NCBI GenBank assembly: GCA_973895155.1
Contig: OZ316896.1
Span: forward strand, 8,019,539-8,083,538
DNA length: 64,000 nt
Origin: Marsupella aquatica
Taxonomy: Eukaryota > Plantae > Marchantiophyta
Reading direction: 5' to 3'
Of the stretch, positions 31,754-64,000 are shown one piece after another. A program made the position numbers and the translations under genes. The notes below the pieces were generated by a model. It saw only the letters and a list, made by a program, of their open reading frames with translations, did no database searches and was not told the origin of the DNA. The number at the start of each line of letters is the position of its first letter. Within the stretch, counting starts at the first letter, position 1.

Positions 31754-32073
31754 CCCATGGAATTTATTCTTGATTTTTGGGAGGAATCAGTGTCATATAG
31801 ACCTGATTGACAGTCAAGAGATGCTCGTTGAGCAAATTGCCAATGAGATTTAGTGGACCTATGGGAGGCCCTAAATCCACACCATTGTCTTTGGCAGCAT
31901 TCAGTGGTCTAATTGTTGGACCTGATGATTTGATTGAGGGTAATGCGCATGCAGCAGATGTTCCACCATTGGAGGAGTCTCATGAGGAGCACATCATGCG
32001 AGGATTACCTGTTGGTAGTGTTGTGTCACCAGTGTGGGGCACTGCACATGCCTTGCCATAGGCAGCAGCACGA

Positions 32074-33072: not shown

Positions 33073-33166
33073 TGGACAGATTGTTGAGCAAGAAGGGATT
33101 GCTCAATCTACTGCTAAATAGCAATCATCGGCTATCTCTTCTACCCTACAAAGAGATATTAGGGAT

Positions 33167-34275: not shown

Positions 34276-34649
34276 GGGGTACACAACATCATCAGTTATT
34301 AGTGGCTGATAACTGACATCAGTTGCTGATATCAGTTATCTCAAAAATTTTAGAATCTCAGTTGAGGAGTTGAGAAGGGCCTTCGAACTTCCGCTCATCT
34401 CAGCTGGGCAGCCGAGGTTGATTCAATCTCGGCTGACCTCGGCGAGATGGGCGTACGGACCAAAAATAAAATAAAAAATAAAAAAACCAAAAAAATTTCC
34501 CGAAAAAAAAACATTTTGAAAAAAAAAAATTGAAATTTTTTTCCCCATCTCAGCTGGCCTCGCCGAGATGGGGCGTACGGACCGAAAAAAAACGTGGAAA
34601 AAAAAAACCAAAAATTTTCCCAAAAAAAAATTTGAAACAAAAATTTTTG
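34276..34649. other. Foreign A-tract-rich fragment replacing most of the RNase H (probable truncated MITE-like insertion)
   Basis: Abrupt loss of pol similarity; starts GGGGTACACAAC; duplicated CATCTCAGCTGG...CGAGATGGGCGTACGGACC. Confidence 0.55.
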
Positions 34650-36050
34650 GATTCTATTGTTGGCAGTGTTGATGCCAAAGAACGTGACAGGGTTCTACAG
34701 AGAGCCAAGAGGTTTCGATGGGAGGGAAACCATCTTTTGAGAGTACTGCATGATGGTAGGGTGTTGGTGGTACCAAAACCATCACAACGAGTACATTTGG
34801 TGCAACATGCACACGAGGAGTTGGGGCACTTTGGTGTGAAGCGCACTTATAGCTTGCTACAGGCACAGTATTGGTGGCGTGGTATGCACACTCATGTCCA
34901 ACAGTTGATAGCTAAGTGTGTGGTATGTGATAGAGTGAGGGCATCATTTAATGCTCCCACTCCCCAGTTGCATCCGTTGCCGATCATGGGTTTGGGATAT
35001 CGTTGGAGTTTGGATTTTGCTGGTCCATTATCTCTCACCCAACGTCATAATCGGTATGTTTTGGTCATGGTGGAGCACTTCTCCAAGTGGATTGAGCTAG
35101 TGGCGTTGCCCGATAAAGCTAGTGGAGGAGTTGCTGCTACATTTTTGGATCGTGTACTTAGTCATTTTGGAGCACCAGCTGAGGTGTTGACTGATCAGGG
35201 AACTGAGTTCCGTGGAGAGTTTGAGATTTTGTGTGAACAAGCTCTGATTGATCATCGTACTACCTCTTGTGATCATCTTGAGGCAGATGGATTAGCTGAG
35301 AGAGTTGTGCAAACTGTGAAGAGAGGATTGCGTAAGTATGGCTTGCAGGTTGGTCATTTGGGAGATTGGGATCTCCAGCTATCTTGGTTAGCTATGGGCT
35401 ACCGTTTCAGTCGGCAAGCATCACTTGCATCCTTCTCACCTTACTTTTTGCTCTATGGTAGAGAGCCAGATTTGCCAGCAGCTATTCATCGTCATGCTGC
35501 ACCAGTTGTGAACTTGGATGATCCTGATGTTTGAGTCAAGGTGTGTTCAGAGAGAGCACGGGTATTTCAGAGAGTGATGCCCATGGCTTTTGACAACCTT
35601 GCCATTGCCCAACATTGTGATACTTTGAGGTATGCCACTATTCGTGGAGGAGGTTACCGTGCAAGCATTCGACGATTTCATCCTGGTGATTATGTTTATT
35701 TACAGCAGACAGCACCCACGACACTTGATGTGACCGCAGGCCAGACAATCTTACGTGTGCGTGAAGTGTTGCCTTCTGGTGTCCTGATGTTGGAGGGAAG
35801 CGATGGTATGGTTTGGAAGGATCATGTGCGCAACTGTGCACCATGTCACCTTCCCAACATTGATGGTACAGTAGATCCAAGCTTGGCACATGTTCGTGCT
35901 GGCTTGAAATGTATGTTGTGTGGATCTGCTCAGGGAGCAGCTACTATGTTGATTTGTGATAAGTGTTCTAGAGGATGGCACATGTCATGTTTGACACCAC
36001 CATTGCAGGTGATTCCTAGTGGATCATGGTTGTGTCCTCAGTGTCGGTGA
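34650..36050 (+). pseudogene. Integrase (HHCC, DDE) with C-terminal PHD finger
   Basis: HEELGH...CVVC, WSLDFAGP, LTDQGTEF, GLAERVV; PHD CMLC...ICDKC...WHMSC...WLCPQC; one stop at 35532-35534. Confidence 0.93.
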
Positions 36051-37771: not shown

Positions 37772-40700
37772 CATAGTGACGGACCAAACGAGAAGTGTGG
37801 TCACACTTCTCATTTTGCCCATGGCGCAAAAAAATTCTAAGGCAAAAACGTATTGGATATGAAATTGGTATTCCCTCTAAAAACCCAAATTTTAGATTTT
37901 AAAAACGAGAAAAAACAATTTGAATTTGAAGTTGGGATACGGCGTATCCCATTTTGGATCCCACCGCGGTTTTCCAAAAAGAAAATACAACAAACGCAGT
38001 AAAAGGGGCAAGGTCATTTTACTCATCAAGAATATTCCTAGAAAATTCTTTTTAACGGTAACTTTTAACTGACTGCGATGAAACTACAGATAGAAATTGA
38101 CCACGGTCGGGGGCAAACTATAAATAGGAGAGCCATGATCAAATATTTCCGCTCATTTCTTCTCGCTCCCGCATCCTCTTGCTCCCCCGAGAATCCACAC
38201 TCTCTATGCAAATTCGTATCCCCCCGAATCAAACTAGAATCTGAACAAGTGAGAATGATATATCTTTTTGGAAATGATGAGGACGAATCCCAAATGGGAT
38301 ATGGCGTATCCCATTTGCGATTCAATCTTCAAAAATCCAGTTGGGTATCATAAACGTGAAAAAATGAGGTTGGATCAACCTCTAAATATGAAGCATTTAG
38401 GTGCGAAATGCAAGAAATTCAAGGTTGAATGCAAAATGGGATACCGCGTATCCCATTTCGGATTCAACCGATGAATCACACGCATTTTAGAATCAAAAGA
38501 TAGAAAATTCAATGTTGAATGCAAAGTGGGATACCAAGTATCCCATTTGGTATTCAACCTCTGAATATCTCACGTTAGGTCTCAAAAGCAGAGGTTGAAT
38601 GTGAAGTGGGATACTGGGTATCTCACAATAAACACAGTGATGAACCAAATGAGGAGTGGGAATGCACAAGCCATAAGTTTAGGAGTTGAATACGAAATGG
38701 GATACCACGTATCCTACTTTGGATTCAATCCAAGGATATGAGGCTTTTGGAATGCACAAGCCATAAATTGAGAAATTCAATCCAAAACTAGTGAATACCG
38801 GGTCATTCTTAGCTTTGAGCCCCTAAGCTTTCAATTTTTTTTTCAAAGTCAAATCCAAAGACCCTATCTAGCTGCCTGAGAATCTTGAAATGATCCAAAT
38901 TCATACTTAACATCTTCATCACTAGTTGTGACAAGAATTGATATGAAAACAATGAAAGATGGACTAAGATATGATCAGATTAAGTTGTGGGGTGAAATTA
39001 TAAAATTACAAAAACTTAAGTTTGTACCCTCTCACGCTTCGGAAGCCATATCTTTATCGGTATTTATCCAAATTCCTTATAATTGATACCGTTAGAAAGA
39101 AGAGCTTGAGACTTTTCAGCCTCTTTACTCGGCGCTGCAAAAATAGAAAAGAAAAAATTTGAGATCAGGCAAAATCTCGCAAAAAAATCAGATTGCATTT
39201 GTAAAAAAATCACAAATGATCAAAATTTCAAGAGGAATACCAAGTGGGATACCAAGTATCCCATGTAGTATTCAAACATGTTATTTCACAAATCTAGACG
39301 GAAAAAATCATAAAACCTTGTATGAATACCAGGTGAACATGTTGTTTTATCCCATTTGGTATAAGAATATGTTATTTTACAAATCAAGAACTTTACAAAG
39401 AGTGATAAGAATTTTACAAAGACCAAATGAAATCCAATTTGGTATTCAAATGTGAAAATGGATGAGTGACTTGTGACCGAGGGCCAATCCGGGACTTTGA
39501 ATCTGAGGTGGGATCCACAAACCCACTTGGTATTTGCCTCCATTTTTAGGTAGGTCTGTTGATTGGTTCTACATATTTTGAAAGAGTAAAAAATGGATGT
39601 GATTGGGGTTGTGCTGAGCAAGGAAAAATCCAAAATTGTTTTGGAGTTGAATCAACAAATGGGACTCATGGATCCGTGTCGGTATGGATCCATGTCGGTA
39701 TGGATCTGTGTCGGTATTCAAACCTCAATATTGAGGTGCAAGGTGTGGCAAGGGCAAATTTTGGCGGGTGAATACCAAATGGGATCCGTGGATCCGTGTT
39801 GGTATTCAAACCTCAATATCAAGGTGCAAGGTGCGACAAGGGCAAATTTTGGCAGGCGAATACCAAATGGGATATTTTTGGACTTGTTCAGAAAACTCAT
39901 CCTTGGTTTTGAGTGGGTTATTTTTGGACTTGTTCAGAAAAATGGGATACGTGGATCCCTATTGGCATTCCCTGATTGGTCCGTACGAGGGTTTTTTATA
40001 GTGAGAGTCTATCTTTTCAAGGAATGCTGAAATCTAAATTGTAGATTTTTTAGGAAGTCGTCGTGGATCCCAGTTGGTCTTCAACTAGAATATCAAGGTA
40101 TGTGGTGTGAAAAGTTCAAACTGTAGAGGTTGAATACTAGATGGGATCCATGGATCCCATCTGGTATTCATCCTCCTGTTTTCCCGATGAGTTTTTGGAC
40201 TTGCAAAAACAAATGGGATCCATGGATCTCAGTTGGTATTCATGTCGAAAGATCTCCTGATGCAAAGTTGCAGGTGGAAAACATTGAGGTTGAATACGAG
40301 AGTGGATACTTGGATCCTGTCTCGTATTCATCATGCGTTATGGGCTAAAATATTTCCGAAGATGTCGTCGGGTTAACTTAACTAACTGTATGGGTTGACT
40401 GTAGTCTGCGGTCAGTTTTTCGCAGTTTTTGGTTTTACTGCAGTTAAAAATTCAAATATTTTAAACCCGAGGTTAAGTGGAAGCGTCAAGAGAATGATTT
40501 GGTGCGGTTTTTGTTCACGTTCAACGGTTGAATCCGAAATGGGATACGCCGTATCCCATTTTCAGTTTGCCATTTTGATTGCAAAAATGAAATCTTGTGT
40601 TTTCCTAGTTTTGTTTGACGCTCGGATTTAGCTTTTAGAAGGATCACGTGAAAAACATTGTTTTTCTAGGTTTTGGAATTTGCTCTTTTTTTAGATGACG

Positions 40701-40904: not shown

Positions 40905-41063
40905 TTTCATTTCAAATAGTCCCTGCCACCTGTCTTTGTTTGGATTGGTCAGTGAGATTCTTTCAATCCTTCTCGTTCTCCGTCACATGATGTCAACAGC
41001 ACTATGATGGAAAAGTTTTAAAGGTTTTATGTAGTTCTTTGTATATGGTAATTTGTTCGGAGC

Positions 41064-42602
41064 GTGAGGGTAGAGACTGGCTCTGTGTCGTACAGAGACC
41101 TTCATGTATTGACATGCTCCACAATGCAACCTTCAAGCGCCCCAAGCTCTCCAAGAGGGTATACCACAGTTCCAAAGGAAGATCACGGTCATTGCGAGTC
41201 TACACAATCTTCGTTCTCTGGGGCATTTTACTCGCATCAAGTTACAAGGTCAAGCAAAGCAATCACTTCCTTCAACGCAACACTACCACTCCAGAAGTCC
41301 AGACGGGTCCAAATGGACACGGATAGCATGACCGATTACGTGCTGGGAGAGGGCAACGAGGTTGGATTAGGGATGGATGAAGTCATCTCGCGACACATAA
41401 TGTCATGTGGAAAAGATTTCCGGGGAAACGAGAAGGAATCGCCCAGGATTCCGCTTTGTCGGTTGATCCACATGGAGGTAGTGCGGACGCTTCAGAAGGA
41501 GAGTGTGTCAATTGAGAAATTGAAAGACTCGTTCTGAAGTAGTGGGTACAATCCAAGGATTGGAATGCGGTTTTTTGTGCAACCGACCAATTCTGATGGT
41601 GTGGAGCAAATATGCACTGAGGAGATCAGGGAGACTTGGGATGCTATTTGGGTTGCTGAGAACGAGAAATTTAAGTTAGAATGCGCGACAGATCCAACTT
41701 TTACGATCTTGAAAGACAAAATGTTCTCAGTCTTTGACGGGAATCACCAACTTTACTCGTGGACTATGGTCACAAAGGAAAATCCAGACAATGTCAAGTA
41801 TCATCCCAGAGTTCTTTGCACCATTTTCAAGGGTGATAAAGCTTCACAAATTCAGATTGAGGCGGCTATGCACACAGTCAACCAGTAAGTAATTCGGCCC
41901 AAACTTGTAATTAAACATTTCTGCAATCCATTGTTGTTAAATAAATACTAAAGAGAGTATTTGTTTTTATGCTAGCGCCTGACGCTACTAATTTCAAACA
42001 TGGCCTATTGCAGGTTAGGGCAGGCCGTTGTTGAACCGTCGTGGATCTTTGACGCAGACAGAATCTGAAGGATTCTCTCTCACAATCTAGAGTACTATAA
42101 GTCAATAATTGACAGCGCCAATTATGCAAAGTTTGAGTATATAAAACAGAAGACTCGAAAACATTCTTGGTACACACGGAAAATGCCTCTAGAAGCTCTT
42201 GTTTATATTTTGTGCGAAAACAAAATCAAAGCTTACACTAACCAGTTCAAGATGGACATGGCATTGGCAGCAAGTCAAGGCAATCCTTGGTCGACTGATG
42301 AGGTCGCAAAGTGGCAGTCACTCATGTTGAAAGAGGCCACCAAAGACTGGTCTACGAAAACATCCAAAATCACTCCTCTTCTTAGTCCTGAGTTTGAAGA
42401 TTTTCTAGGTACTTGTGCAGAGATGTACGTATTGACGGAGAAGAACAAGCGAGAGAAAAAACCCGATTCGGTTGTTTGTACTATGGACCGTGCTAGACTA
42501 TTCACAGCAGTTTCTGCTCTTGATCCAAAATTGAGATGCACTTTGCTTGTTGCTCACTGTACTCCAGAGTTGAGAAAACAATTCTTCCACCCTGCCAGTG
42601 TG
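41064..42602 (+). pseudogene. ParB/Srx-like domain gene of element B, truncated by the LTR at 42603
   Basis: IPLCRLIHMEVVRTLQ...IEKLKDSF*SSGY...MFSVFDGNHQLYSW (ParB-like DGNHR box); intron 41885-42013. Confidence 0.65.
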
Positions 42603-45600
42603 TGTGGTGCGTCCCATGGCTCCCTAAACCCAAGAAACCCCCCAGCTCAAGCCGATTCCCGCAGGTTTCGCGCTTGGCGAGGCCGTTTCTGCGGCTTAGC
42701 GGCATGGGACGCTGCTAACCTTCTACTACTACTATTAACATTTTACACACATATACTGGACAGATCCTTCATCGGGTCATGAGATACGTAGCCGGCCTAA
42801 TCTAGACCTTCCCTCGTCTTCCCCTCCGTCTTGTTAGGTATGTTTGGATTCCGCCGCCGGAATGATCCCCAATAGGCTTGGTTAAGCCGCTAAGACCTCT
42901 CTCAGCTTGACACATCCAACTCTCACTCCCCTGCTTACTTTCCTTCCTTCTAGTTGATGTGGGCACTCTTCACACAAGTTAATGCGACACACAAATAGCA
43001 AAATGACTCCTTCTGACTGAGTCATACCATGCACTTGCCATACAAACAGTACATCTCATACACAAGCTCTGCGAACTAAGCCGTGAGGCCAACTCTATTC
43101 AGCTCTTAGGCATGAGGAAACATGAATATACACAAGGGTCACTGTATGACTAACCGAGAGCTTCTCTTACTACTTGATCCCAGCCCGGCTGGTGCAAACT
43201 AAAAACTTGCTAAAGAAGAGGCCCTTAGCTCCCCGCTGCCCAGGTACTTATCCTGGTAGTGGATCCGCCTAATTCTTTGCAGCGTAAGCCTAATCTACCT
43301 AACAGTAATCTACTTGCCCAGATCTACCTATGTACAGCAAGGCAGGAGCACAAGTGTTGCTCCTACCAGTGGAACCGCAATCCCACTAAGCTAAGTGTCA
43401 GGGCCGCCCCTGGTCCTGATCCTAATCCTAAACTTGGAGATCAGCGCCTGCCCTGCCCACTCACGCCTCCTCCCTCCACGTCCGCCCTTCCTAAAAGGAA
43501 CGGCGCCCTTGCACCGTCACGACACCGGTGGTGGATCCTCAATGGACGCCCCCAACGCTTCCTCCTCAGCCACTGCCGTAGGTTCGTTCTTTGACAGATT
43601 ACCTGCCCTTGACTGAGTCAACTCTCCATCGGCCTGACTGGGTCCACAATCGGCGTCGGCATCGGCTCGGGAATCGGTTACGGCCTCAGCCTTGGCAACG
43701 GTCTCCCCGGCCTGCTCAAGAGGCGGATCTGGGATACCAGCCTCATTAATGAGTAGTTCGGCTTGGGCCGCACCATCCCCACCTTTGATGATAGCGGGAT
43801 CTATTGCCGTATTCATGCCGGAGGATGGTGCTGGGTCTACCTCCTTGGTCACCACTGCCTGTGGAGTCGGATTACTCCTTGACCCTGAAGGTTTCCGCTT
43901 CTTCTTCTTTTCTGGTTCGGCAGCTGGTCCCTTCCCCTTCCCACTTACTTCCGGCACTGGTGCAGGTGGCGCGGCTTTTTCTTCGGCCAGTACCACTCCT
44001 GGTAACCTGGTTGCCCCAATTGGAGTTGGGCCTGATGAAGACAAGCACTTAAATACTGCGGCTTGTTTCTTCAGCCGCTCCGTTTGGTTGTCGGCCCGCC
44101 GCTGGAGGTTCTCCATCTTCCTCGTGATTTCCTCCAACTCCTCTTGGGTCTCATCCAGGTCCTTGCACGCCTCCTCTAGTTCCTTCTGGGCTTCCTCCCG
44201 TTCTTTCTTCAAGGTAGCCCTCTCCTCCCGGGTTGCTCTTAGCTCCTTGTGTCGAGCTCTGCAATGATGACAGACTCCATCTGGTTCATCTTGGCGTAAG
44301 TCTGATCGAGCATCTCGTCCTTCTCCCTTAGGTCGGCCTTGAAGCTGGCCGTCAGGGACGCAAGCTCCTGCTGCAGCGCCATAATCCCTTGATAGGATTT
44401 TCCTAACTCGGCCTCCTTCTGCTCAAGGGCTCCGCGGATTTTCTCGAGCTCCCCCTTCAACGCCCATTCCTTTCTTTGGGTCTCCGCCATGGCCCGGCTG
44501 TTGGCTGTTATGTGGGCCTCCTCTGCATTCCTCAGCTCTCGCTTCCACTTCTCCCTCTCTTTGATTGTATCGGCCAACTCTCCCTGCGTCTGAGTCAGTT
44601 TATCCTTGATATTCTGATTATCAGCCTGCCCGGTGTCCAACTGCCCCTTCATGATGTTCAGCTCATGCCGTTTAATCCGCAGTTCATCTTGGGCTTTCTT
44701 GGCCGCCCTTAGATCTTCAATCTCGGCTTCCATCCTCCTAAGCCGCCGAATGACCTCGTCCTTCTTGCTTCTCTCTAAAGCCACCGCTTCTTCTAATTGG
44801 CGCTTCTCCAACTGCTCCCTATGGAAAAAGGGTCCTACCTCCAACTCCTCTCCAAAGATGCCGAGCGCAAGTTCCCCACGCATCTCACCATACTCCATGG
44901 CTCTATTCTTAGCGTAGGTGGAGTAAGTAGAAGTGATTGGCATCGCCCATCACGGCCTCTGCTCCCAAGCCGTCTTGCGGATATCTTCAATCGTGGCTAG
45001 AGGTTTGCTTCCTTTTTCGGCTAGCCGCCTGATGTCCTCCGGCCAATCTCCTCCTGGTAAATCCTTTTCCCTAGCCAGGGCTGCCTCCTCTTCCTGCCTG
45101 ATTTGCTCCTGAAATTCCTGCGCCGTCTGTTTTATGCCGTCAAAGCTCGGGGGAGCAACATCTGGTGGGGGAGACTCAGGGCTACTCTGCTGGTTGGGGT
45201 CCCCTCGTACTACCCTTGGAAGTGTGGGGACAAACCGGCCATAGGTCCTTACTCCTGGAACGTGATGGTCCGACCCATAGCCGGAGTTATCATGGCTGAA
45301 GTCCTCCACTGCCTCCTGCTCTGCTGCTCGGCTGGCTTCTTTGGTGCCGCCGACCTCATTCTTTTTGCCGGGGTGGCTTCATCGTTGACGGCTTCCTTCC
45401 TCTTCATCTCTGCTGCCGTGGAGGTTTCTCCTAGCACCGTTGCCTGGGTCCACCTTTCCGTGCTACCCTTCAATTCCCAGTGTATGTTGTTGTAGTTTTT
45501 GATGGCCTCTCGGATGCTGACGATGCTGTCTTTGCAAAACAGAAGATCGTCGAGCTGATTGGAAGTAGGAGTCCACAAGAACTCGTCCTTGATGAGTTCG

Positions 45601-48839: not shown

Positions 48840-49280
48840 GTTATAATCATATAAGAGAGCATCAAGTCCAATGGATTTTTAAGGCTTCACAACTTAGTTG
48901 ATGAAAAATGGGGAGTGAGGGGAGAGAGCCCCTCTCCTCTTTATTTATAGTGCTCACACCTCAAGCACACGGATCAAGCATGGCACACGGATGGAAGCCA
49001 TGTGTCACATATCCAAGGCAAGTAAGTGTGCTAGTACTGTAGTTACGTGAGTGGAGCAACTATAGGCAGTACACTGTAGCATGCACACTGTAGATCGTAC
49101 ACTATAACATGCACACTGTAGATCGTACACTGTAGCATGCATACTATAGATCGTACACTGTAGATTGTACACTATAGCATGCACACTGTAGATCATACAC
49201 TGTAGATCGTACATTGTAGCATGCATACTATAGATCGTACACTGTAGCATGCACACTGTAAGTCTTGCACTGTAGCATGC

Positions 49281-53258: not shown

Positions 53259-53419
53259 CATGCACACTGTAGATCGTACACTGTAGCATGCACACTGTAG
53301 GTTGTGCACTGTAGCATGTACACTATAGACTGCATATAGTGCGAGAATTCAAACTACTATCCTATACTACTAAGCTATACTTAAAAGGAACTTACTAAAC
53401 AAAGAATCCCCACGACAAC

Positions 53420-56400
53420 GTGCGAGCAACCGAGATAATTGGATTGCAAAGTCCAGACTCGGCCCTTTCCCGAATGGTCCGTGGGAATCGTGGTCAACAA
53501 GTGCTCAATTTTCCTGCAGCTCGCGGAGTTGTTGGGACTGCATGTGTGAATAGTTCACCGTTCAGAGTTCCAGATTCTCCAAGTTCTCCAGGGCGGACTG
53601 TGATTGGTTCCAGGCTCCAAGCATCGAGGAGAGGTCTTAGTGGTGTTCAGGTTATGTATAGAGAGCCACGAAGTCCAATTGTGTTTTCAGATGAGTCGAG
53701 TGGATCAGAGGACGAAGATCAGGAAGGAGATAGAGAATCCGATATCATAGCACAAGTTGTGTCTGAATGTTTAGAAGGAGCTGTAGAAGGGAATAGTTTT
53801 AGTCACCTTTTCAGTGCCCCTCTAAATGCGTCGAGGAGATCTGTGGAGGATGGTAGCTCAGCACAGAGTGATGCATCTATTTGTGAGGTACCTGAAGGAG
53901 AGAAAAATGCCAATATTCTCATAGGATTTCAGTCTATAGAGAAGTCAAATGAGCCAAGTAAAAAAGATAGAGATCGAATTACTAGGAAAGACAATGTGAT
54001 AAATGATAAATTGAATAGAAACAAAATGAAAGAAATTTATAAGTATCCATGTTGTGATAATTTTTGTCTGAGGAATTTGGGTCTGCAGGATGTGACGAAA
54101 CAACACACATATTACTATGGGCTATCCTACCAAGAGAAGAACGTACTTCTAAGAGGATGTATGAAGGGTGGGCATGCTGGTGCAAGTGGTTACTCAGTTA
54201 GTGGTAGATCCTTTTGTCGGAGTGGTTTTAAGAAATTATTTTCCCTAGGAAATAATCGTCTCCAAAAAATCTTGAAGAACATGTTTTCTCGGATACAGAT
54301 CGATACATTTTGTAGAGAAAAATCAACCGCACATCTTGGTCTTGTTCAATGGCTGGATGATTTTTTTACCACAAATGTAGAGAGTCTCCCCAACAAGGAT
54401 ATCTTTCATTTACCTAACAATTGGACAAAAACAGAAGTTTTTGACGCCTTCCAGTCTGAAACTCTAATGCGCCAAGAACAAGGCGTGACATATTCATGGT
54501 TTGTTCGCATTTTGAACAAGGAGTTTCCTCGCGTGCGCATCCCCAAAAGGAGTCATTTCTCCACCTGCGCCCCATGTACTGAATTCAAAGCACTTCGTGA
54601 TAAGGCAACACTCGAAGCAGAAAAGAGTAAGTTTCTAAACCCGTGTGTTACTCCCGATAATTTTATCGGGTTGAGTATTCCCATGCTTCTTCTTTGGTAA
54701 TGTGTGTGAATATATCGTTTGAACAGTTTGAATACTTATCCCCGATAATTTTATCGGGTTGAGTATTCCCATGCTTCTTCTTTGGTAATGTGTGAATATA
54801 TTGTTTGAATACTTATCCCGATAAATTTATCGCTGTCACGGTTTAACATTATGGTTATCAAATCAAGTGTTTGAATACTGAACCCGATAAATTTATCGCT
54901 GTCAGACCAGCAAAGTTCTAAACGTTTTGATTATTGTAGGAAAATTCTCAACATTGCTAAACGAGCATCGGAAGGCACAAGCAGTGGAGAGGGAGAAGTT
55001 AGCAAAGCAGCAGAGCAAATGTTACAAGAGTCCGGAGAAATATTTGGGCATCTGTATTGATGGAATGGATCAAAAGAAGATAGAGTTACCTCATTTCATT
55101 CGGTGTCCAAAGAATATGGATGAGAAGTATTTCATCCCTGTACACGTAGTGGGTTGTTTGATCTTCAACAAACAATTGAGTTCAAATGTTTTTTTGAACT
55201 ATCCAAATATTCACAATGATAGCAACCTGACCATCCACGTTATTCAGCATATTCTGAATACCTGGGAAGGTCCGTTCCCTCCAGTGCTTTACCTCCAGCT
55301 TGATAACATTGCTCGGGAAAACAAGAATAAATATTTTATGGCATATTTGAACATGTTGGTGGAGATAGGTGTTTTCCAAAAAATAAAGGTTGGTTTTCTG
55401 TTGGTTGGGCACACCCATGACCAAATTGATCAAATGTTTAGCAAGTTTTCTTCAAAATTGAACAAGCGAAAAGCTTTTTGATTGGACACTCTTTCCGCAA
55501 TCATAGAGGAATCCTACAATCCTACGGCAAAAATATTTTTTGTCCATGAGGTTGCCGATTTCAAAAAATTTGTGTCTGACAAGGATCAAGCAAATGACAA
55601 GGATATGGATGGTCAAGTTCTGTGTACTCTCCACGGCATAAGTGCTCAGAAACAATTTCGGATTACCAGAGTACTCAAAGATGGGAGTGCTCAGTCTGTC
55701 TTCCATGCCAAACATCTTTCCACGACAACAGATTGGGGGGGGGCCCGTGGAATTTGTTTGGTAGTACATTCCTTCATCTGGAATGTGGGTTGCACCACAA
55801 ATGGCATTGAAGTCGGCCACGGGAGCGACAGGAGACAATGATGATCAAGAGAATGATACTGAGGAACAAGACGAGCGGGCGGCGCAAAATCATTTTTCCA
55901 CTCTTCAAAAGTATCGGAGAGCAATTGAAGATGGATTCAATTACTTTGACAACAAAGATCGGCTATGGTGGGGTCGTTTTTTTGACAAACAAAAAGAAGT
56001 GATTCAACACCACCTGAAACCTGCACAATGGAGTTTTGATTGGAGTTGGCCCAAGGTAAACGTACAGAGAGAACCTACGACCAATCCTATGGAAGCAGCA
56101 ATGGAACCTATCTTGGTTGATAAAATAGCGGGTGTGAGGACAGTCATGTATTCCGGAAGTCAGAGAAAAGTCACGGAAATTGGAGACTTCAAGGATCTAG
56201 AGGTGAATACTAAATTTTCAATGATATGTGTAGCAGCCCATCAGGATCCAAAGGGAAGACCATTCTGGATGGCAAAAGTGATTAAGTTTAGAGTTTAGGG
56301 TCTTGCCCAGTGACAAAACACCCGGGCCTGACGGTATGACAGCAGAGGTTTACAGAGCATGTTGGGGTTTTATTGGTTAGGATTTAGTGGATATGATACA

Positions 56401-59383
56401 GGAATTTTGGCTTACGGGTGCCCTCGATGCTGATATTTGTGAAGGAATTGTTAAATTCATACCCAAGAAACCGGACAAACGTTTGTTAAGTGACTGGCGC
56501 CATTGACAATGCTAAATACGATATACAAGCTAATTGCCAAGATCCTTGCCTTGCGATTAAAACCAATCCTACACCTGATAATAAGTCCGCAACAAACTGG
56601 ATTTATCCCTGGACGCCACATCTTAGAAAATATTTCCCTTGCTTGGCTTGCCTGTGATTGGGTTCACAAAAGGAGACGAGAGGCACTGTTTCTGAAATTA
56701 GACTTTGATAAGGCTTTTGACCGTGTGTCGCATGAATATATATGGGAATGTATGCAGTTGTTAGGGATAAGCGGACGTTTCATCTCACTGGTTAGAGCGT
56801 TGTTGGCTCAGGCATCTTCACGTGCCTTGGTGAATGGTTTACTATCTAACATGTTTGAGCTCAAGCGTGGGGTAAGACAGGGCTGCCCTTTATCACCGTT
56901 GCTGTTTGTTATCTTCACGCAGCCACTTATGGATTTTCTTGATGCAGAGCTAGCAGCGGGTAGACTGTGTGGCTTGCAGATCTCGCTTGATCTCACTATT
57001 TGCTACAGGTTGTTTGCGGATGATGTGGGGATGTTTATCCCTGCAACTGAGAATGCTTTTGAGGAAGCAACAACTGCTCTGGACTGTTATGAGAAGGCTA
57101 GCGGTGCTCGACTGAATTTGAAGAAATCAGTTGTGATTCCATTGGCTATGGAGGAGGTCCCTGTTTGGCTGAATAACACGGGCTGCCATATCAGTCAAAG
57201 GGGGGAGATGCAAAAATATCTTGGTGCACCATTTGGGGTGGGCTTGAGCCGGAGCAACTGCACAAATTCTGCCTCGACAAAATTTGTGCCAGGCTTGCTG
57301 TTTGGTCCAACAAGTTGCTTTCCTTTACTGGCCGATCATTACTAGTTAAACAGGTGCTGCTTGCTATTCCGATCTACCATGTTATGTATTGCAAGGCGTC
57401 TGCTGGTCTAGCCAAGAAGCTTATTGCTCTCAGTAGAGAGTTTCTATGGGGATACAATGACTCAGGAGGGAAGAAGGTCCCGTTGGTGGCTTGGGACAGG
57501 ATGGCACTGCCACGAGTGGAGGGGGGATTGGGATTTCGGGATTTCCGCAGCCACTCTGATGCCCTGCTCTCTCAATGGTTCACTAAGGCACTGAACTCGC
57601 CAGAACTGGAATGGTCCAAGATGTTGGCGGCCAATCTGGGATTGTTGGGGTGGATGAACTACAAGGTTATTAGGAGAAATGGATACTCCTTCCAGGACCA
57701 GTTGCTTTTATGTACACCTCGTTCCTTTAGTGGGCTCCCCTACACTACGGGTCTCTGGCGATGCTGGGAGCTAGTGAGAGCCCATCTATCCTTTGAGCCT
57801 GGCCGGGGGGGGCCGCCTGCCCGGTGGAGCATCACTAACACACTCAGATGTATGGTGGGCTTTCATTCTCTTCCTAATTCGGCCATTACGGACATTGCAA
57901 CGATCTGTGGCCGGCTGGGAATGAGATCGATTGGTGATGGTTGGTCGGCGGAGGAAGGATGTTGGAAGGATGTTGGAAGGACCTCCCGCTTAGATGGAGC
58001 AACATGCGTGGATTCTCTGCAGAGCATCAATTGCTTGCACGGAAGTTCTTGGAAAGTATATGGAGCGCTTCACACTGCCGGTCAGAGTACTTCCTGTATG
58101 CCAAACAGTGGAGGTGGACAGATAGACTTGAACCATTGAAGGATTTCAGAATTCAGAACTGCAGAGTGTATGACTTCTTGCGGCCCAAGACCTCAAATCA
58201 CAAACGCCTGAATAGGATCTGGTCTCTTACCCAAGAGGAGAGAGGATGGAATGAGAGCTGGTCCAGACTGTGGAGATCGGATTTACCAACCAGAGGCAAG
58301 ACCTTTATATGGAGGATCATTGTGGGGGGCTTGTTCACTAGGGCCCGTGCACTTAGATTAGAGGTGAGCAATGGTGACTGCAAGTTGTGCAGCAGACGGT
58401 TGGAAACCATCCCTCACCTTTTTTTCCAATGTGCACATGCTGTCTATTGTTGGCGTCTCTGTTTGACCTCGTTGAGTGCGCTGGATATGCCAATTGGACA
58501 AGGGCTGATGGCCCTTTTAGATGCAGCCTGTGGGAGGGAGCCGATCCGAGTGGCGCAACTTTTTGTCTTGCACCAAATTCTCTGGAGGCTCTGGATTGGG
58601 AGAAACACTCACATGTTTCAGACGGGGGGGAGACGTGTGTTTGACCTGGGACTTGTACTGTCAGAGGCAGTGGAAAACTTATTCGCTGCTGGTCGGCGTT
58701 GCCCCCCGGGCAAGAAGTGCACTCGCCTGCTGCGCGCCAAATCATGTATCGATGGGCTTCGCAAGAGCTGGCTTGGCAGCGGGGGGATCAGTTTCACTTC
58801 CGCTGGGTGACTTTGATTTTGCAGTGATGTTTGAACGTTGAGACCAATGGATGTTTGGTTCTGGGGGCACTGATGCCCTCAAGCTGGTTGTGAGTTTGTG
58901 TGGTGTGGGTTTGGGTTGCTGGTAGGTGTCTCCGGGGAGAGTAATTCCTTGCCTTAGGTGGATTTGGGTTGGTTTTTTGAGGTTTGGCCCTCTGTTCTTT
59001 CTTGGCTGCCTCCCGGGAAACCTGGTCTGTTTGTGCGCCCTCCCCGTGGGGCTTTTCACGGCGGAACTGAATTGATTTATTTATGGCTACCATTCCAAGG
59101 AAAAGTGATTGAGATTCTCACAAAAATTAACAACATCCCCGAGCGAATTAAAATCACTTGGTATGCAATGGATTCGGAAGAGGAGTCTGCAATTGAAGGT
59201 AGATATTATCCGGAGAAAGAGGCTTCGTCTAACAAAGTACTGGAGGATGAACTGTCCCTAGCAGAAACTGCAGTTTATGCGTATAATTTTGCGTTATTGG
59301 CAAATAGTACTCTACCTGTACAAACAAGACGAATCATTCAAAATGCAATGATGGACACTGTAGTCGTTGATAGTAGAAGCTAG
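53420..59383 (+). pseudogene. Sola-like (DUF7869-type) DDE transposase with a C-terminal BAH/Tudor-like domain; split by a LINE
   Basis: CCDNFC, FSTCAPC, ICIDGMDQ, LYLQLDNIARENKN, FLLVGHTHDQIDQMFS; in-frame intron 54627-54939; removing the LINE restores PFWMAKVIEILTK...ITWY. Confidence 0.8.
56284..59100 (+). mobile_element. 5'-truncated L1-clade LINE (RT + zf-RVT) with 10-bp TSD AAAAGTGATT
   Basis: KTPGPDG, LKLDFDKAFD, GVRQGCPLSP, LFADD, KYLG, CKLC...ETIPHLFFQC; TSD at 56274-56283 and 59101-59110. Confidence 0.93.
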
Positions 59384-59834
59384 TGTAAAGGTTTTAAGTT
59401 ATAATGGTTATCGTTAAGCTGGTTATCATTCCCATGAGGATGGTCGCAATCGTGAACATCTGGGACTAAGTATGTTGTTCTCCGAAGCTATAATTATATC
59501 TTTTTTTGAATTGATTGTAATGACTAACTAGCTAGAGCGTGGAATGCAAAGTCTGATAATATTATCGACAACTCCATTCCCCAGCTAGAACATCGTGACA
59601 AATAAGGGAGTGGAATAGCTAGAGCGTGGAATGCAAAGTCCGATAAGTCCCCAGCTAGAACACCGTGACAAACAAGGGAGTAGAATGCAATGTCTGATAA
59701 ATTTATTGGGTTCAAACGTAATTGCGATAACTTTATCATACTCCATTCTCCGAATATTGAGAAGTGGGACTGACATAATCTAACATAACCTAAACTAACC
59801 TAACCTAACTATCATACAACCAGATAACAATTTC

Positions 59835-62800
59835 CTAATCCAGTAACATGTCATTGAGATCATCCTCATTAGGCATTCTGGGAGGTTCTTCGGCTTCTTC
59901 TTCATTCTCGACCTTCTTCATGACTTCAACAGTGAAAGTCAAAGTCCCCAATGTTCCCAATTGGCCTCCAATCGGTGATTGAATCTCTAGACCTTCGCCG
60001 CCTTGCCCTTCAATCTGTGCTTCATCATATAAATTCCAGTTTGACTCTAGAGTCATAATCCGATGTCTCACAAAATCAATCTGTGCAGCATTTTTATCGA
60101 CCGCACAACCCTGGCAAGAATTGAGAAGAGCCGCAGCTAACATGGATCCGGTTCCGCAGCAAAGATCCATAACCCAGTCATTTTTCTCCGAGAAATGAGT
60201 AACGAACCAAGCACCCAAACCAACAGGCTTTTGGTACGGGTTCACAACATAGCCCAACGGATCAACAGACTTTTGGTTACACATGGAACCTTGATGATAT
60301 TGATGCGAGACTCATCCGGTTGGAAATTGTACATGTTCATGTTTTGGATGCCTTCCTTGCTGTAGAATCCCATCGACCAGTTTTCAAAACCCCACGCCAA
60401 TCAAGCACCGGCGGGACGCTCATGAATGTTAGTCTTCTCCCAAATTCCAGACTCAACCCCACAGTTGCACACAATCTTGAGCGCAGACATGACCATATTT
60501 TTTTGCTATAATGAATGGATCACAACAAACCTCCACTACTTAGCAGCTGTCATGTTCAAAAAACTTCTCACCATATCTACAACATCCTTTTCTATGAAGG
60601 ACACTTCATCAAACTCCGAACCAGGCGCATTAAAACCATACGGAATGTCGGCAAGAGTGTAAGGTTTTGCCTCCACAAAAGAATCCAAAATTCGAACATC
60701 CCCAACATGGAGATAGTAAGGGAAAGAATCTCCGTCAGCATTTTTCCATATTTGCTCCGCGGCTTCTCGTGCGTCCTTGCCTAGCGCCTAAAGCCGGTTG
60801 TACCGATCAATTGCAGCAAGCACAAAATTCTTGAACACATACGGGATGTCACCGGAGGGAACAATAACCTCCCCCGCCGAATTATATTGCACAGGTAGAA
60901 CAACTTTATTTTTCCGCTTTGACCCAATCTTCAGCTGTAACAAAGGTTGCACAAAATTCCAATCATAATGAAATCGCTTAACGAATACGAAAGCCGTTAA
61001 AAATCTCGGGAATGAAATGAGTTATGCAAAAATGTACTGATGGAATGGCAAGGCCGATAAAAATCTCGTGATGATTTTTGAATGGAACGAGGAATGCAAA
61101 AATCTACTAATGGAATGGCAAGGCCGATAAAAATCTTGGGGAGAGACGGATGCTTACCGCTTCGCTCAACTTCTCTGCCCATGTTCCCAGGACGGAAACA
61201 TCCGTCTCATTTGGAAACATTTCTCTGCACGTTGCCCAGTCGGGCTACCCAGATATCTGCAAGAATAATTTCTTCACCTTGGAAAGTTTTTTCAGCTTTT
61301 CCCCTTCCTTGTGCATTTGATCCAAGGTGATCACTTTCCCAATGACCCTATTCAAGAGCCGCTTAACATGCTCCTTAGTTGACTGTCCTTGAAGACCTCG
61401 AAAAGTATTTAAATTGAGGTCACCTGCAAGTTTATTCATTTTAATCTCTTTCAGCGTTAAAGGTTTAACCTTTCCCTTTGCATTTGTTGTTGCCATGATC
61501 TTTTTGGGTTGTCCCAAGACAGTCCCCTTCTCCCACATCTGGAAAACTTTCTTCTAAAGATCCCAAATTTCACCCATTCGAAAAGCAATCTGGAATGTTG
61601 GGTCATGTTTGGCCATGCTGTCACGAACACCGGGAGTGTATTGCAGCATACATTCCTGACAACAAGCTTCGCAAACATCCTTGTTTGATCCTACATCCAT
61701 TTCAACAAAGATATTGTGGCACGCACAAACTCTATCGATATGAGTCATGTTCTTCCTATACTCCTGGTCATAATTGTGCTGGAAGCCCAACTTCCGGACC
61801 TCCGACTTGGTAAGTCCTGCGTATACCCAAGCTTCCAGCTCACCATAAATCTGCTTCCCATACATTTTATACAACTCGGCCTTTGCCCGAGCACCATGAT
61901 TTCCTCCAATAATTCTATACTTCCATACTCTGGACTTTAGAATGTCCCAATCCTTGATTGTGGGACAATCCTCCGGATCCACACACAGTAGTGGGGTTTT
62001 TCCTTAGAAGAATCTTGATATTCTCCACATGCAATTAATTTGTCCACTAGTCTGATCAAAGTTCACTTCTCTCCAGCTTCATCAAAAATTAAATTGTCGA
62101 CATGCAAGAGGACAGTTGTCCTTTGAACCCTTTGCTGCATCAGCAGACTGAGCTCCGCTTTGATGGCGTCAGTCTCATACATCGAAAGAGCAGTCTCCTC
62201 CTCTTCATCAATCTAGAAAATGCCGTTTGAAATTAGATTATGAAAGAAACAACAAGATTTTTATCGGAATCCTCTTTCGTCAATAGAAAATCAAAGTTTG
62301 GTAGCACTTACCGATCGAACCTCGGCTTGTATATCTGAACGAGGCAAACGCTCATCAAGCAAAGGAGGATCCATATCGATCAGGGCTTCCACTCCTTCTA
62401 GGGCTGTGGATAAACTCCAACCTGTTCTCTTTCTCTTAACGCTAACTCCAGAACCAGATGGCCCCGATCCCTCAGATCCTCTACTCTCGCTTACATTTAT
62501 GTAAGGCGCTTCCAAAACGCCTAAACCTGCACTGGTTGCACGACCTCGACGAATGCCGCTGCCCCTTCTCCCGCCCTCAGAGGGACCAGCAAAATCTTCC
62601 ATGATGTTCCCTCTCCCTCTCCCTTTCCCCCTGCCACTTCCCTTCCCCGAACCACTTTTGGGCTCGTCCAAAGCCGTACCTCCAGCACTTTTTGCCGATG
62701 AAGCTCCACTCCCGTTAGAACCAGGCCTCTTAATAACTATTTTCCGGATGGGTCTGAATTCTTCACCTGTGAGCCTCTTGTACTCTGCGTTCACCCTTGG

Positions 62801-63217
62801 TAGCATGATGAGATCACAATCTTGGACAAACTGGCACACCCAAGCTGGGCCCATAAGATTCATTACTTTTGTTGACCTAACTTCCGCGACAAGCGCGTCT
62901 TCAAGGTAACTCTCAAGGGATTTCTCAAGAAAGTTCTCCATGGTGACAATGACAGAGGTGAATCCCTTGCCTCCACACATTGTCAAGAAACTCAGACCCT
63001 CTTTCAACACTTTTGCCTCTCCCTGGCTAATCAAGTACTCACAGATCGCCACACCAACAACGGGGCCAAACAAGAGAGTAACCTTTGCGGATTTTTGCAT
63101 CTGGACCCAAAGGATAGGAGACTCACAGTCTACCATATCCTTGGATTGTAACCTGGCGTCGCGGAAGTACCACGGTTTCTTGATGAACCCTAAAACCAAA
63201 AACCGGCATGCAAACAT
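59835..63217 (-). pseudogene. Multi-exon gene: ParB/Srx-like domain fused to a beta-class N6-adenine/N4-cytosine DNA methyltransferase
   Basis: YRIIGGNHGARA (61554-61982); LHVGDVRIL, motif IV ADIPYG (60649-60638), YQKPV, motif I VMDLCCGTGSMLAAA, AVDKN; introns 62213-62311 and 60935-61157; stops and frameshifts. Confidence 0.8.
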
Positions 63218-63481
63218 CGATACAATGAACTCAGAAAGTCCTCATTCACGTACAAGCATTAGGTCATTCCACGAGCGATACCAACTCCGATAAAATTATC
63301 GCAAACAAATATGAGCACGATATAAATTGACGGCCGAGATTACATTATCGTATGTGTCAACATCTGAAAATGAGAGCAACACCGATAAAATTATCGCAAA
63401 AGTGGTCCAAACAAAAAGTGAGCCTTCTTTAAATTGACGACCAACTGTACATGTGATAATGTGCCTAATCAATCATCCCAC

Positions 63482-63768
63482 CTCGGGGGGTTGACTATCA
63501 ACAATCTTAGGAACCACGTGCGATCCAAAATATGTATTTTTCATATAAATTAGCTAAATTTTTAAAAAGCGTAGGAAGCAAAAGAAGTTATTATAAACCT
63601 ATATTTGTAGAATATTCTCTAATATATACCTTTTATAAAGTAAAATAGATCATTTGTATTGAAAATAGAGAATATTTTTAGAATATTCCCATAATAAAAT
63701 AGGTGTGTTTATATTAGGCTAGGATCGCACGTGGTACCCCAAAATATACACTAAGTTAACCCCCCGAG
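63482..63768. mobile_element. MITE (287 bp) with 8-bp TSD CATCCCAC
   Basis: TIRs CTCGGGGGGTTGACT / AGTTAACCCCCCGAG plus inner ACCACGTGCGATCC / GGATCGCACGTGGT; TSD at 63474-63481 and 63769-63776; AT-rich core. Confidence 0.88.
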
Positions 63769-64000
63769 CATCCCACCCAAGATCAAACCACGCTACAGCA
63801 AAGCAAGAGATTAGCTTCTTGGGCCATTGGGGTATATGAGTGATCCTATGATCATAGGCCCACAGCCAATGAAAATCTGTGGCACCGGTCTCAGGATTAA
63901 CTACAACTACTGAATAGCGGCGTGACGGAACGTCACAACAGGCATTTGTGCAACACTGACACATCTCACCATTGTCAAGGACATTTGTCCATAAACAAGA

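Follow-up and report, generated by a model that had tools for sequence, protein, structure and literature searches.

A decayed accessory gene with a ParB-like module and a methyltransferase domain next to a DUF7869 transposase-like gene in Marsupella aquatica

The segment between positions 59835 and 63217 (minus strand) of the analyzed window, which comprises 64,000 nucleotides of the Marsupella aquatica contig OZ316896.1, probably represents a decayed accessory gene that belonged to a DNA transposon of the DUF7869 type. Its intact relatives of approximately 1,000 residues would combine a ParB-like module, including a helix-turn-helix domain, with a methyltransferase, load on palindromes of their own element and methylate it; for this reading as a whole, we estimate a probability of roughly 0.6.

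The complete pseudogene, consisting of an N-terminal domain, the ParB-like module and the methyltransferase, begins at the ATG that comes first in the upstream ORF (63215-63217) and ends with the stop codon at 59835-59837. All motifs named in the initial annotation were recovered on the minus strand in the order claimed: RIIGGNHGARAK is located within the ORF piece 61554-62003, GDVR and LADIPYGFNAPG within the piece 60536-60787, and NPYQKP and DLCCGTGS within the piece 59835-60311, while the DIPY segment corresponds to an 83-aa piece in the stop-to-stop ORF list. A second DIPY occurrence (SGDIPYVF, 60788-61021) is not kept in the relatives. In exon 1 (62312-63217), the reading frame of which is intact in the window copy, a conserved N-terminal domain (KKPWYF..., about 170 aa) precedes a linker rich in Gly, Ser and Arg. 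The exon matched the related metagenome loci L002 and L001 with 29% identity (tblastn, E 8e-25 and 1e-18, respectively), is also contained in alignment A4, and terminates in the donor site CGATCG/GTAAGT. For the N-terminal domain, neither a Pfam match at E ≤ 1 nor a meaningful match among PDB sequences was obtained; the ESM Atlas assigned it to PWWP at 0.84, which is under the 0.9 level and serves as a lead only.

Intron 1 (62213-62311, GT..AG, 99 nt) was delimited by splice-site comparison and contains a variant of the palindrome motif at 62252-62267. Exon 2 (61158-62212) harbors the ParB-like module, featuring an N-terminal ParB/Srx fold with the motif GGNHGARAK and a subsequent helix-turn-helix region, as determined by tblastn, profile comparison and the predicted fold of a relative, and shares 75% identity across 286 aa with the relative P0001 (tblastn). 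Intron 2 (60935-61157, GTAAGC..CAG, 223 nt), likewise placed by splice-site comparison, includes a tandem repeat of 70 nt in which CCGATAAAAATCT occurs twice (61054-61066 and 61124-61136), as well as a less well-matching copy near 60993. Exon 3 (59835-60934) encodes a basic KRK stretch and a beta-class N6/N4 methyltransferase (GDVR, ADIPYGFN, NPYQKP and DLCCGTGS), as recognized by tblastn (64-66% identity to the relative P0005), PF01555 and profile comparison. Profiles built from the relatives cover the window copy nearly end to end (positions 2-361 of 362 for the methyltransferase and 7-368 for the ParB exon). Both introns possess canonical GT-AG ends at positions common to L002, and the gene is accordingly predicted to consist of three exons and two introns within a single transcript; in the contigs from three public runs, no intron-sized joints were seen at either predicted intron.

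Comparison with the relatives by tblastn also revealed seven in-frame stops, three frameshifts and one two-codon deletion in the window copy. Exon 2 is affected by stops at 62063-62065, 61554-61556 and 61245-61247 and by frameshifts near 62035 and at 61985-61991, and exon 3 by stops at 60788-60790, 60536-60538, 60506-60508 and 60401-60403, one frameshift (near 60272) and the two-codon deletion located just before ADIPYG. The earlier description of the gene as intron-containing thus applies to the two GT-AG introns common to L002, whereas the other interruptions represent decay; their interpretation as further introns was ruled out, because they are stops and frameshifts inside exons that are open in relatives. 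Since all interruptions of the methyltransferase domain are of this kind and fall in an exon without a break in any of the 10 relatives, the window copy is, as judged from its sequence, an inactive pseudogene, which therefore can write no methylation. The proposal that this enzyme could deposit 6mA or 4mC consequently does not hold for the dead copy in the window. Among the matches listed, contigs of other copies from public runs carry an open frame at two of the seven stop positions and across the frameshift positions.

Two protein searches yielded 46 relatives of the ParB exon and 10 of the methyltransferase exon, and relatives were located on six metagenome loci (L001 to L006). The search for intact copies was successful, as L002 represents a fully open copy of approximately 1,001 aa with all three exons open (272, 359 and 370 aa) and splice sites in phase 0. 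Order and strand of the ParB and methyltransferase exons agree in five of the six loci, the sixth one beginning within the methyltransferase exon, and in the relative P0028 one continuous ORF runs across the exon 2/3 junction and joins both parts. The fusion suggested by the initial annotation was hence supported as one gene, and the relatives are predicted to encode a single polypeptide with a ParB-like and a methyltransferase domain. The dN/dS values, calculated for L004 versus L005 as the only suitable pair (synonymous sites were saturated in all other pairs, with pN between 0.14 and 0.26), amounted to 0.10 for the methyltransferase exon and 0.06 for the ParB exon; these estimates show purifying selection on both exons. 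The family is multi-copy, with 231 to 395 contig pieces per run in three public runs originating from two studies.

The partner of the accessory gene is a DUF7869 (PF25273) transposase-like gene located at 53399-59383 on the plus strand (PF25273, E 3.3e-43), and in the window the two genes converge tail-to-tail. A LINE at about 56300-58950, with RVT_1 and zf-RVT domains at 56494-58810, splits the DUF7869 gene, the pieces flanking it being contiguous in L006. In four of the six loci, the accessory gene faces the C-terminal part of a convergent DUF7869 gene; the other two loci end about 300-360 nt past the stop codon. The assignment to a transposon is supported in that the accessory gene resides in a transposon-like two-gene unit together with the DUF7869 gene. 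Plant-type LINE and Ty3 elements are present in the host DNA. Comparison of the DUF7869 piece with PDB sequences gave no match, and no element ends were found within the window. An array of the 14-nt unit CACTGTAG at 53259-53328 resumes at 49072-49275, beyond an inserted block.

The search against PF02195, which had been recommended as a check of the ParB assignment, returned no match at E ≤ 1 for any of four exon 2 relatives or for the window piece, and the ParB exon matched no PHROG, NCBIfam or Pfam family. The assignment is instead based on an AlphaFold model of L002 exon 2 (37 sequences, pLDDT 80.7), for which Foldseek retrieved nine matches at E ≤ 1e-3, all of them Noc or ParB proteins, with E values between 3.4e-5 (7nfu_B, the best match) and 7.5e-4. 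Alignments by VIA-align reached Z 11.5 for 7bnk_B (169 aa, model residues 33-313), Z 11.4 for 7bm8_A (rmsd 2.1 across 98 aa), Z 9.6 for KorB (200 aa) and Z 6.2 for the Spo0J-parS complex (model residues 163-315). Furthermore, Spo0J was the top hit of the ParB-exon profile among PDB sequences, on its DNA-binding region (E 0.09). The predicted structure thus shows a ParB/Noc/KorB-like fold of the middle exon, comprising the N-terminal and the helix-turn-helix domains. An earlier fold computed from eight sequences (pLDDT 49), whose Foldseek list pointed to ParB, was not relied on. An ESM Atlas assignment of the exon to DUF3723, known from a Starship accessory gene (0.96), was unconfirmed by Pfam. 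The nucleotide-binding motif of ParB is GERRxRA; the putative counterpart in exon 2 reads GGNHGARAK instead, and CTP-driven clamping therefore need not apply to this family.

The palindrome highlighted in the initial annotation proved to be real: CCGATAANNTTATCGG occurs in eight copies at ≤2 mismatches (two exact, four with one and two with two mismatches), compared to an expectation of 0.18 derived from 100 shuffled sequences, all of which fell short of eight. Two palindromes CCGATAAAATTATCGC (63287 and 63382, 95 nt apart) occupy 63287-63397 in the 5' flank of the accessory gene, two degenerate ones (59553 and 59694, two mismatches each) lie at 59553-59709 within tandem repeats of 70-87 nt that belong to the spacer separating the convergent genes, and four (54654, 54742, 54818 and 54884, 66-88 nt apart) are clustered at 54654-54899, where the DUF7869 gene has a non-coding gap; in L006, the matching gap carries one motif copy. 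In total, 12 copies were counted in L001, eight in L002, six in L003, eight in L004, five in L005 and three in L006, in addition to the eight in the window, with expected values of ≤0.03. The palindromes fall into three lineage-specific sequence classes of 16-20 bp with 3 to 12 copies per locus, and according to the exon coordinates, all of them are non-coding: they occupy the two introns, the flank on the 5' side, the spacer on the 3' side and the gap within the DUF7869 gene. Because their position is conserved while their sequence is lineage-specific, they appear to be credible protein-binding sites, in agreement with their proposed role as candidate sites. Palindrome class and protein similarity are discordant: the L002 palindrome shares CCCGAT/ATCGGG with the window, but at the protein level L002 is 61-63% identical to the GAGCGAGAC lineage and only 52% identical to the window lineage.

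A more far-reaching version is considered doubtful. It holds that the ParB helix-turn-helix co-evolves with the dispersed palindromes as an addressing system of the parS kind, by which each lineage restricts the 6mA or 4mC that it writes to its own DNA, and that at least three elements of the window, in a plant-like genome, each possess their own palindrome and ParB-like gene. Two other palindrome families in the window are without a statistically supported ParB gene, one of them (2252-8173) adjoining a second DUF7869-like gene, where no significant ParB match was obtained. ParB-like motifs in the ORFs 10720-11343 and 41538-41888 and the motif-I-like end of the ORF 12118-12849 were rejected (hhalign probability below 1%, no Pfam match). 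These two families, together with the palindrome cluster inside the transposase gene, imply that the transposase could be the binder. The palindromes would then be bound by the DUF7869 transposase or a host factor, and the ParB-methyltransferase would act without them, either untargeted or by means of its N-terminal domain. Transposase-bound subterminal repeats are indeed common in large DNA transposons; however, the motifs described here are spread across every non-coding segment and not restricted to the ends. Dimeric helix-turn-helix ParB proteins are known to bind 16-bp palindromes, and the predicted model aligns with structures of ParB DNA-binding domains in complex with parS. Furthermore, arrays of inverted repeats adjoining genes with a ParB-like part are reported from a different superfamily of transposons (Petroll et al. 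2025, bioRxiv 10.1101/2025.02.11.637652). Binding by the transposase or a host factor is therefore regarded as rather unlikely, although it is the strongest competitor of the preferred reading, namely loading of the ParB-like module on the palindromes.

The methyltransferase half passed the PF01555 search, which had likewise been recommended, in five of five relatives scanned (30.5-36.0 bits, gathering cut-off 26.7), the match spanning only profile positions 144-218 of 221; the last piece of the window copy alone remained under the cut-off (21.2 bits, E 3.2e-4). Additional matches were obtained to phrog_67 (E 2.6e-14) and to phrog_498 (E 5e-10, spanning motif IV to motif I), and the best PDB sequence matches were beta-class enzymes, namely M.RsrI, an N4C methyltransferase and CcrM (E 0.04-0.7). 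The order is that of the beta class, with motif IV (AD[IV]PYGFN) about 150 residues ahead of NPYQKP and motif I (DLCCGTGS). The profile matches and the motif order show the methyltransferase half of the intact relatives to be a predicted PF01555 member of the beta class.

Motif IV of amino-methyltransferases canonically reads (D/N/S)PP(Y/F/W), and this tetrapeptide is replaced by D-I/V-P-Y in 11 of the 12 sequences, while motif I is DLCCGTGS and not FxGxG-like; methyltransferase activity is therefore not assured. The non-canonical motifs would suit a protein whose methyltransferase half has no catalytic activity or a substrate other than DNA, and which serves as a ParB-like clamp or bridge on DNA, for example by holding or segregating excised copies. 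Against this, D[IV]PYGFN, NPYQKP and DLCCGTGS are near-invariant, and D76 and Y79 of motif IV are kept, in 11 of the 12 sequences; the dN/dS value of 0.10 and the best-matching families, PF01555 and DNA-methyltransferase PHROGs of phages, likewise argue for a DNA-modifying enzyme. A silent enzyme thus seems improbable, and the methyltransferase of the intact relatives likely marks the transposon's own DNA.

Matches to phage and plasmid sequences were weak. Using the methyltransferase as tblastn query, 137 phage records were retrieved, all with less than 60% identity and at most 44% coverage, the best match (E 2e-5) being weak and spanning 36% of the protein; for the ParB exon, no phage match was found at E ≤ 10. 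Eleven plasmid records matched motif I only and were weak. A Gordonia phage match, the best of those inspected, proved to be a methyltransferase gene on its own (about 248 codons), with no ParB part. That the gene belongs to the host or derives from a recent bacterial or phage contamination, rather than being transposon cargo, is very improbable: the prokaryotic look of both domains, and nothing further, speaks for it, but the introns are conserved GT-AG introns, the gene is multi-copy and decayed, the DUF7869 gene is constantly linked, and no true relative was found in IMG/VR or in a prokaryote scan covering one genome each of 185,579 species, which gave two marginal stretches, one of which fell by chance on the antisense strand of a MutS2-like gene.

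Under the preferred reading, the helix-turn-helix part of the intact protein would bind the palindromes of the element as a dimer, and this binding, perhaps followed by ParB-like spreading, would confine methylation to the element. The Asp residue in D[IV]PY suggests 6mA, not 4mC, as the product, and the mark may help the element to express its genes or to time its transposition. Equipped with a DNA-modifying enzyme of its own and a sequence-specific loader, a transposon could itself determine its epigenetic state, beyond suffering that imposed by the host, which bears on the origin of 6mA or 4mC in eukaryotes and on the persistence of active giant DNA transposons.

Chromosomal ParB, Noc and KorB bind palindromes of 16 bp (parS, NBS and OB). 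The Marsupella family resembles these systems in the modeled fold of the N-terminal and helix-turn-helix domains (Z 9.0-11.5) and in the clustered 16-20-bp palindromes carried by the elements, but differs from them in GGNHGARAK, which departs from their arginine patch, and in the fusion of the module to an enzyme; neither a ParA partner nor a C-terminal dimerisation domain was identified for the ParB-like module. Eukaryotic N4C methyltransferases of bacterial origin have been described as MpDN4MT1a/b in Marchantia (bioRxiv 10.1101/2021.02.12.428880) and as N4CMT in rotifers (PMC8885841). They share with the present family the PF01555 type and the activity, or proposed activity, on eukaryotic nuclear DNA; by their descriptions, however, they are host genes, and MpDN4MT1 carries TSPPY, whereas the Marsupella family features AD[IV]PY, the ParB module and the transposon context. 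Fusions of the ParB-CTPase fold to an N6_N4 methyltransferase are reported from phages and prophages (PF02195 and PF01555; survey PMC12704722), and, as far as that survey describes them, the arrangement is similar, with ParB first and the beta-class methyltransferase second on a mobile element. In contrast to these fusions, the eukaryotic ParB part fails PF02195 and includes a helix-turn-helix DNA-binding domain, and the family possesses introns, a basic stretch and the extra N-terminal domain; a PF02195 survey at the gathering cut-off would miss a eukaryotic ParB part of the Marsupella type.

The closest parallels originate from algal transposons. In the red-algal Plavaka elements, the accessory protein PAG3 is described as possessing an N-terminal ParB-like domain, and tandem inverted-repeat arrays adjoining its gene are read as self-binding sites (Petroll et al. 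2025, bioRxiv 10.1101/2025.02.11.637652). According to that account, the enzyme fused in PAG3 is a 2OG oxygenase and not a methyltransferase, the N6-adenine methylase resides with SET on the separate protein PAG2, and the transposon superfamily is a different one. The giant Sola1 transposon Sola1-1_Ec32 of Ectocarpus carries an accessory gene with ParB and methyltransferase parts opposite the transposase, the product of which is proposed to bind and modify its own transposon (Dinatale et al. 2025, PMC12477816). By this description, it matches the arrangement in the window and in four of the six loci, with the accessory gene on the strand opposite the transposase; the transposase-like partner in the Marsupella family is known from its PF25273 (DUF7869) match. 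The Marsupella family differs in its three exons, the extra conserved N-terminal domain and the mapped palindrome arrays, the available description of the Ectocarpus element mentioning no arrays. The design is therefore already in print for algae, and the window copy is a dead further example and not a new kind. Beyond the algal cases, the present analysis contributes a well-sampled family with L002 as an open reference copy, structural support that the ParB part includes a DNA-binding domain, and three palindrome classes at conserved non-coding positions, by which binding specificity becomes readily testable.

All motifs named in the initial annotation were recovered on the minus strand and in the order claimed, namely RIIGGNHGARAK in the stop-to-stop piece 61554–62003, GDVR and LADIPYGFNAPG in the piece 60536–60787, and NPYQKP together with DLCCGTGS in the piece 59835–60311. 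The accompanying proposal that the interruptions represent introns was only partly upheld by alignment of relatives to the window. Two introns (62213–62311 and 60935–61157, minus strand) were predicted, both featuring GT..AG borders, phase 0, and the same position as in the fully open reference locus L002, whereas the remaining interruptions are lesions within exons. These comprise in-frame stops at 62063–65, 61554–56, 61245–47, 60788–90, 60536–38, 60506–08, and 60401–03, frame changes near 62035, 61985–61991, and 60272, and a two-codon deletion preceding ADIPYG. Because of these lesions, and because profiles made from relatives span the copy almost end to end, the region 59835–63217 is, judged from its sequence, a full-length pseudogene. 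Among the matches listed, other copies on contigs from public runs were open where two of these stops occur and at those frameshift positions that the matches show. Between 231 and 395 contig pieces were matched per run (three runs, two studies), and the family is therefore multi-copy.

Protein searches with the two largest pieces retrieved, from short public contigs, four relatives of the ParB-like part (67–81% identity) and ten of the methyltransferase part (53–64% identity), the latter all being single unbroken ORFs of 344–398 aa. One scan of metagenome contigs yielded six related loci (L001–L006). The ParB-like and methyltransferase exons occur on the same strand and in the same order in five of the six, and the sequence of L006 begins within the methyltransferase exon. 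The search for intact copies, as advised initially, was successful: all three exons of L002 are open (272 + 359 + 370 = 1,001 aa), and L001 carries a single stop, in exon 2. The suggested fusion of both parts into one protein was corroborated by P0028, a relative represented by a 408-aa ORF on a Logan contig, in which the end of the ParB-like exon passes unbroken into the methyltransferase exon. P0028 thus documents one reading frame over both parts, whether it stems from a spliced transcript or from a copy lacking introns. Comparison of the most similar pair, L004 and L005, gave a dN/dS of 0.10 in the methyltransferase exon and 0.06 in the ParB exon; in the remaining pairs, synonymous sites were saturated, yet pN was only 0.14–0.26. 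By these substitution values, purifying selection acts on both exons.

Exon 3 (59835–60934, minus strand) encodes the methyltransferase domain. In the PF01555 search proposed for it, five out of five relatives scored above the cut-off (30.5–36.0 bits vs. 26.7), with only the C-terminal third of the profile aligned. A match spanning motif IV to motif I was obtained with two phage families, phrog_67 (E 2.6e-14) and phrog_498 (E 5e-10), and the top PDB sequence matches were beta-class enzymes, with weak E-values. AD[IV]PYGFN, NPYQKP, and DLCCGTGS are conserved in 11 of 12 aligned sequences, the motif IV tetrapeptide differing from the canonical DPPY and SPPY. At the sensitivity of the scan, a true methyltransferase relative was found neither in prokaryotes (one genome each from 185,579 species) nor in IMG/VR.

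The middle exon (61158–62212, minus strand) of the relatives was matched by none of the Pfam, PHROG, and NCBIfam models, and the PF02195 search proposed for the ParB part found no match, the family falling below the gathering cut-off. A first predicted fold based on eight sequences was poor (pLDDT 49); a prediction from 37 sequences, obtained in a third protein search, reached a pLDDT of 80.7. At E ≤ 1e-3, Foldseek returned nine matches, each of them Noc or ParB; next came Spo0J, KorB, pNOB8 ParB-N, PadC, and sulfiredoxin. VIA-align superimposed the model on M. xanthus ParB (Z 11.5, model 33–313), the Caulobacter N-terminal domain (Z 11.4, rmsd 2.1, 98 residues), KorB (Z 9.6, 200 residues), and Spo0J in complex with parS (Z 6.2, model 163–315). 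The similarity to ParB, Noc, and KorB takes in the helix-turn-helix domain as well as the N-terminal one. Separately, C173, H174, C192, C193, and H211 (L002 numbering) are invariant in all eight aligned sequences; the set falls within residues 168–212 of L002 exon 2 (window about 61600–61750), where the DNA-binding region has its first helices, and could represent a metal site absent from canonical ParB. For L002 exon 2, the ESM Atlas gave DUF3723 as the nearest entry (score 0.96, 177 shared features), an accessory gene conserved in fungal Starship elements; Pfam did not confirm this placement.

Exon 1 (62312–63217, minus strand; L002 393–1208) aligns as a conserved N-terminal domain of approximately 170 aa with the pattern KKxW[YF]xR...FGPV...LP...Y.R. 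Pfam and PDB sequence searches gave no supported assignment; a resemblance to PWWP clusters in the ESM Atlas (0.84 only) is a lead, and a genuine PWWP would provide the protein with a chromatin reader.

The window consists of eukaryotic repeat DNA with Ty3-like elements and a LINE encoding RVT_1 and zf-RVT. The claimed transposon setting was supported, since the accessory gene is paired convergently with a DUF7869 gene (53399–59383, plus strand; PF25273 E 3.3e-43), tail-to-tail with the pseudogene, and likewise in four of the six loci, the remaining two being too short. The LINE (56300–58950, plus strand; RVT_1 E 4.3e-29, zf-RVT E 2.6e-14) lies inside the DUF7869 gene, whose parts flanking 56.3–58.95 kb are contiguous in L006, indicating that it split the window copy. 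Repeat analysis of the window did not locate the element ends. At 49072–49275 and 53259–53328, parts of one 14-nt tandem repeat (CATGCACACTGTAG type, with 13 exact CACTGTAG cores) stand on either side of a G+C-rich block of ~4 kb, so that the left boundary of the DUF7869 element may be further left than 49 kb. Elsewhere, in a Ty3-like retroelement (32062–36050, plus strand), the reverse transcriptase, integrase, and PHD finger are immediately preceded by a piece of a C5 cytosine DNA methylase (PF00145 E 4.7e-12); retrotransposon-borne DNMTs have been reported from charophytes and dinoflagellates (PMC5890265).

The palindrome CCGATAANNTTATCGG, put forward initially as a loading or target site, has eight window copies with ≤2 mismatches (0.18 expected), clustered at 54654–54899, 59553–59709, and 63287–63397. 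Palindromes of 16–20 bp number 12, 8, 6, 8, 5, and 3 in L001 to L006 and 8 in the window (expected ≤0.03). Their class is GAGCGAGAC-NN-GTCTCGCTC in L001, L003, L004, L005, and L006, CCCGAT-N6-ATCGGG in L002, and CCGATAA-NN-TTATCGG in the window, two of the window copies fitting the L002 pattern too. By exon coordinates, all 50 are non-coding, being located in the 5′ flank, introns 1 and 2, the intergenic spacer, and the DUF7869 gene gap, usually spaced 45–95 nt apart within short tandem repeats. Such a fixed position with a lineage-specific sequence would be expected of a co-evolving protein–site pair, the encoded ParB-like protein and the transposase both being candidate binders. Just past the 5′ flank palindromes, a unit of ~300 nt (63480–63790) resembles a small hairpin or MITE-like insertion, its A+T-rich centre lying between inverted ends, GGAACCACGTGCGATCC and GGATCGCACGTGGTACC, that are 94% complementary.

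Two further palindrome families were detected. The 18-bp family CACGCGAC-NN-GTCGCGTG (2252–8173; five copies at 2252, 2545, 7934, 7984, and 8173, related copies at 4130 and 5153) adjoins a second, divergent DUF7869-like gene (222–1882 and past the left edge, minus strand; phmmer E 7.7e-6, Pfam E 0.0012). Downstream, plus-strand ORFs at 8329–13363, one terminating in FVQCGEWAICFGEGTNL and another (10720–11343) containing the ParB-like word ILRGQHTIMAYK, may constitute a very distant ParB + methyltransferase-like gene (hhalign probability <1%). The third family, TGGGATAC-N3-GTATCCCA (6–7 copies, 37933–40540), lies upstream of ORFs at 41052–42782 (plus strand), where ORF 41538–41888 contains VFDGNHQLYSW and reads ...FSVFDGNHQLYSW...HTVNQ, placed by hhalign in register with GGNHGARAK...QHNIDQ of the ParB exon (probability 0.2%). 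Neither ParB-like word was supported by hhalign or Pfam.

The best reading overall, with a probability of about 0.6, is that intact members are palindrome-bound ParB–methyltransferases marking their own element. They would yield one nuclear protein, whose import signal may be the basic KRKRK stretch with which exon 3 begins; the dimer of its ParB helix-turn-helix would occupy the palindromes, and the methyltransferase would then mark the element. As a rule of thumb, a leading Asp in motif IV makes 6mA more likely than 4mC, and on this basis 6mA would be the likelier product. Counted against this reading is that palindrome class is out of step with overall protein similarity. Binding of the palindromes by the transposase, in whose gene gap they also occur, is considered unlikely. 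The non-canonical motifs and the ParB part matching no sequence model count against the preferred reading as well; that the methyltransferase is silent and the protein solely a ParB-like DNA binder appears improbable, with the methyltransferase exon conserved. A host gene or contaminant is highly improbable for a multi-copy family paired with a DUF7869 gene.

A ParB–methyltransferase proposed to mark its own element has close counterparts. In the 21.5-kb Ectocarpus Sola1 transposon Sola1-1_Ec32, the transposase and a ParB plus methyltransferase accessory gene occupy opposite strands, as the DUF7869 gene and the accessory gene do in the window, and the accessory protein is proposed to bind and modify the DNA of its own element (PMC12477816, Dinatale et al. 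2025). Inverted-repeat tandem arrays adjoining an accessory gene of Plavaka elements, which encodes ParB and a 2OG-oxygenase, led Petroll et al. 2025 (bioRxiv) to the same inference. According to a survey published in 2025 (PMC12704722), ParB + N6_N4 methyltransferase fusions are common in phages and prophages, and sulfiredoxin is the main eukaryotic representative of the ParB-CTPase fold; the survey searched PF02195 at the gathering cut-off, which the present family fails. The accessible part of Iyer et al. 2016 (PMC4738411) lists no such clade in land plants, and our literature search returned no report of the present family in a plant. The design is already known, and the window copy is a new but dead example of it, with a well-sampled family.
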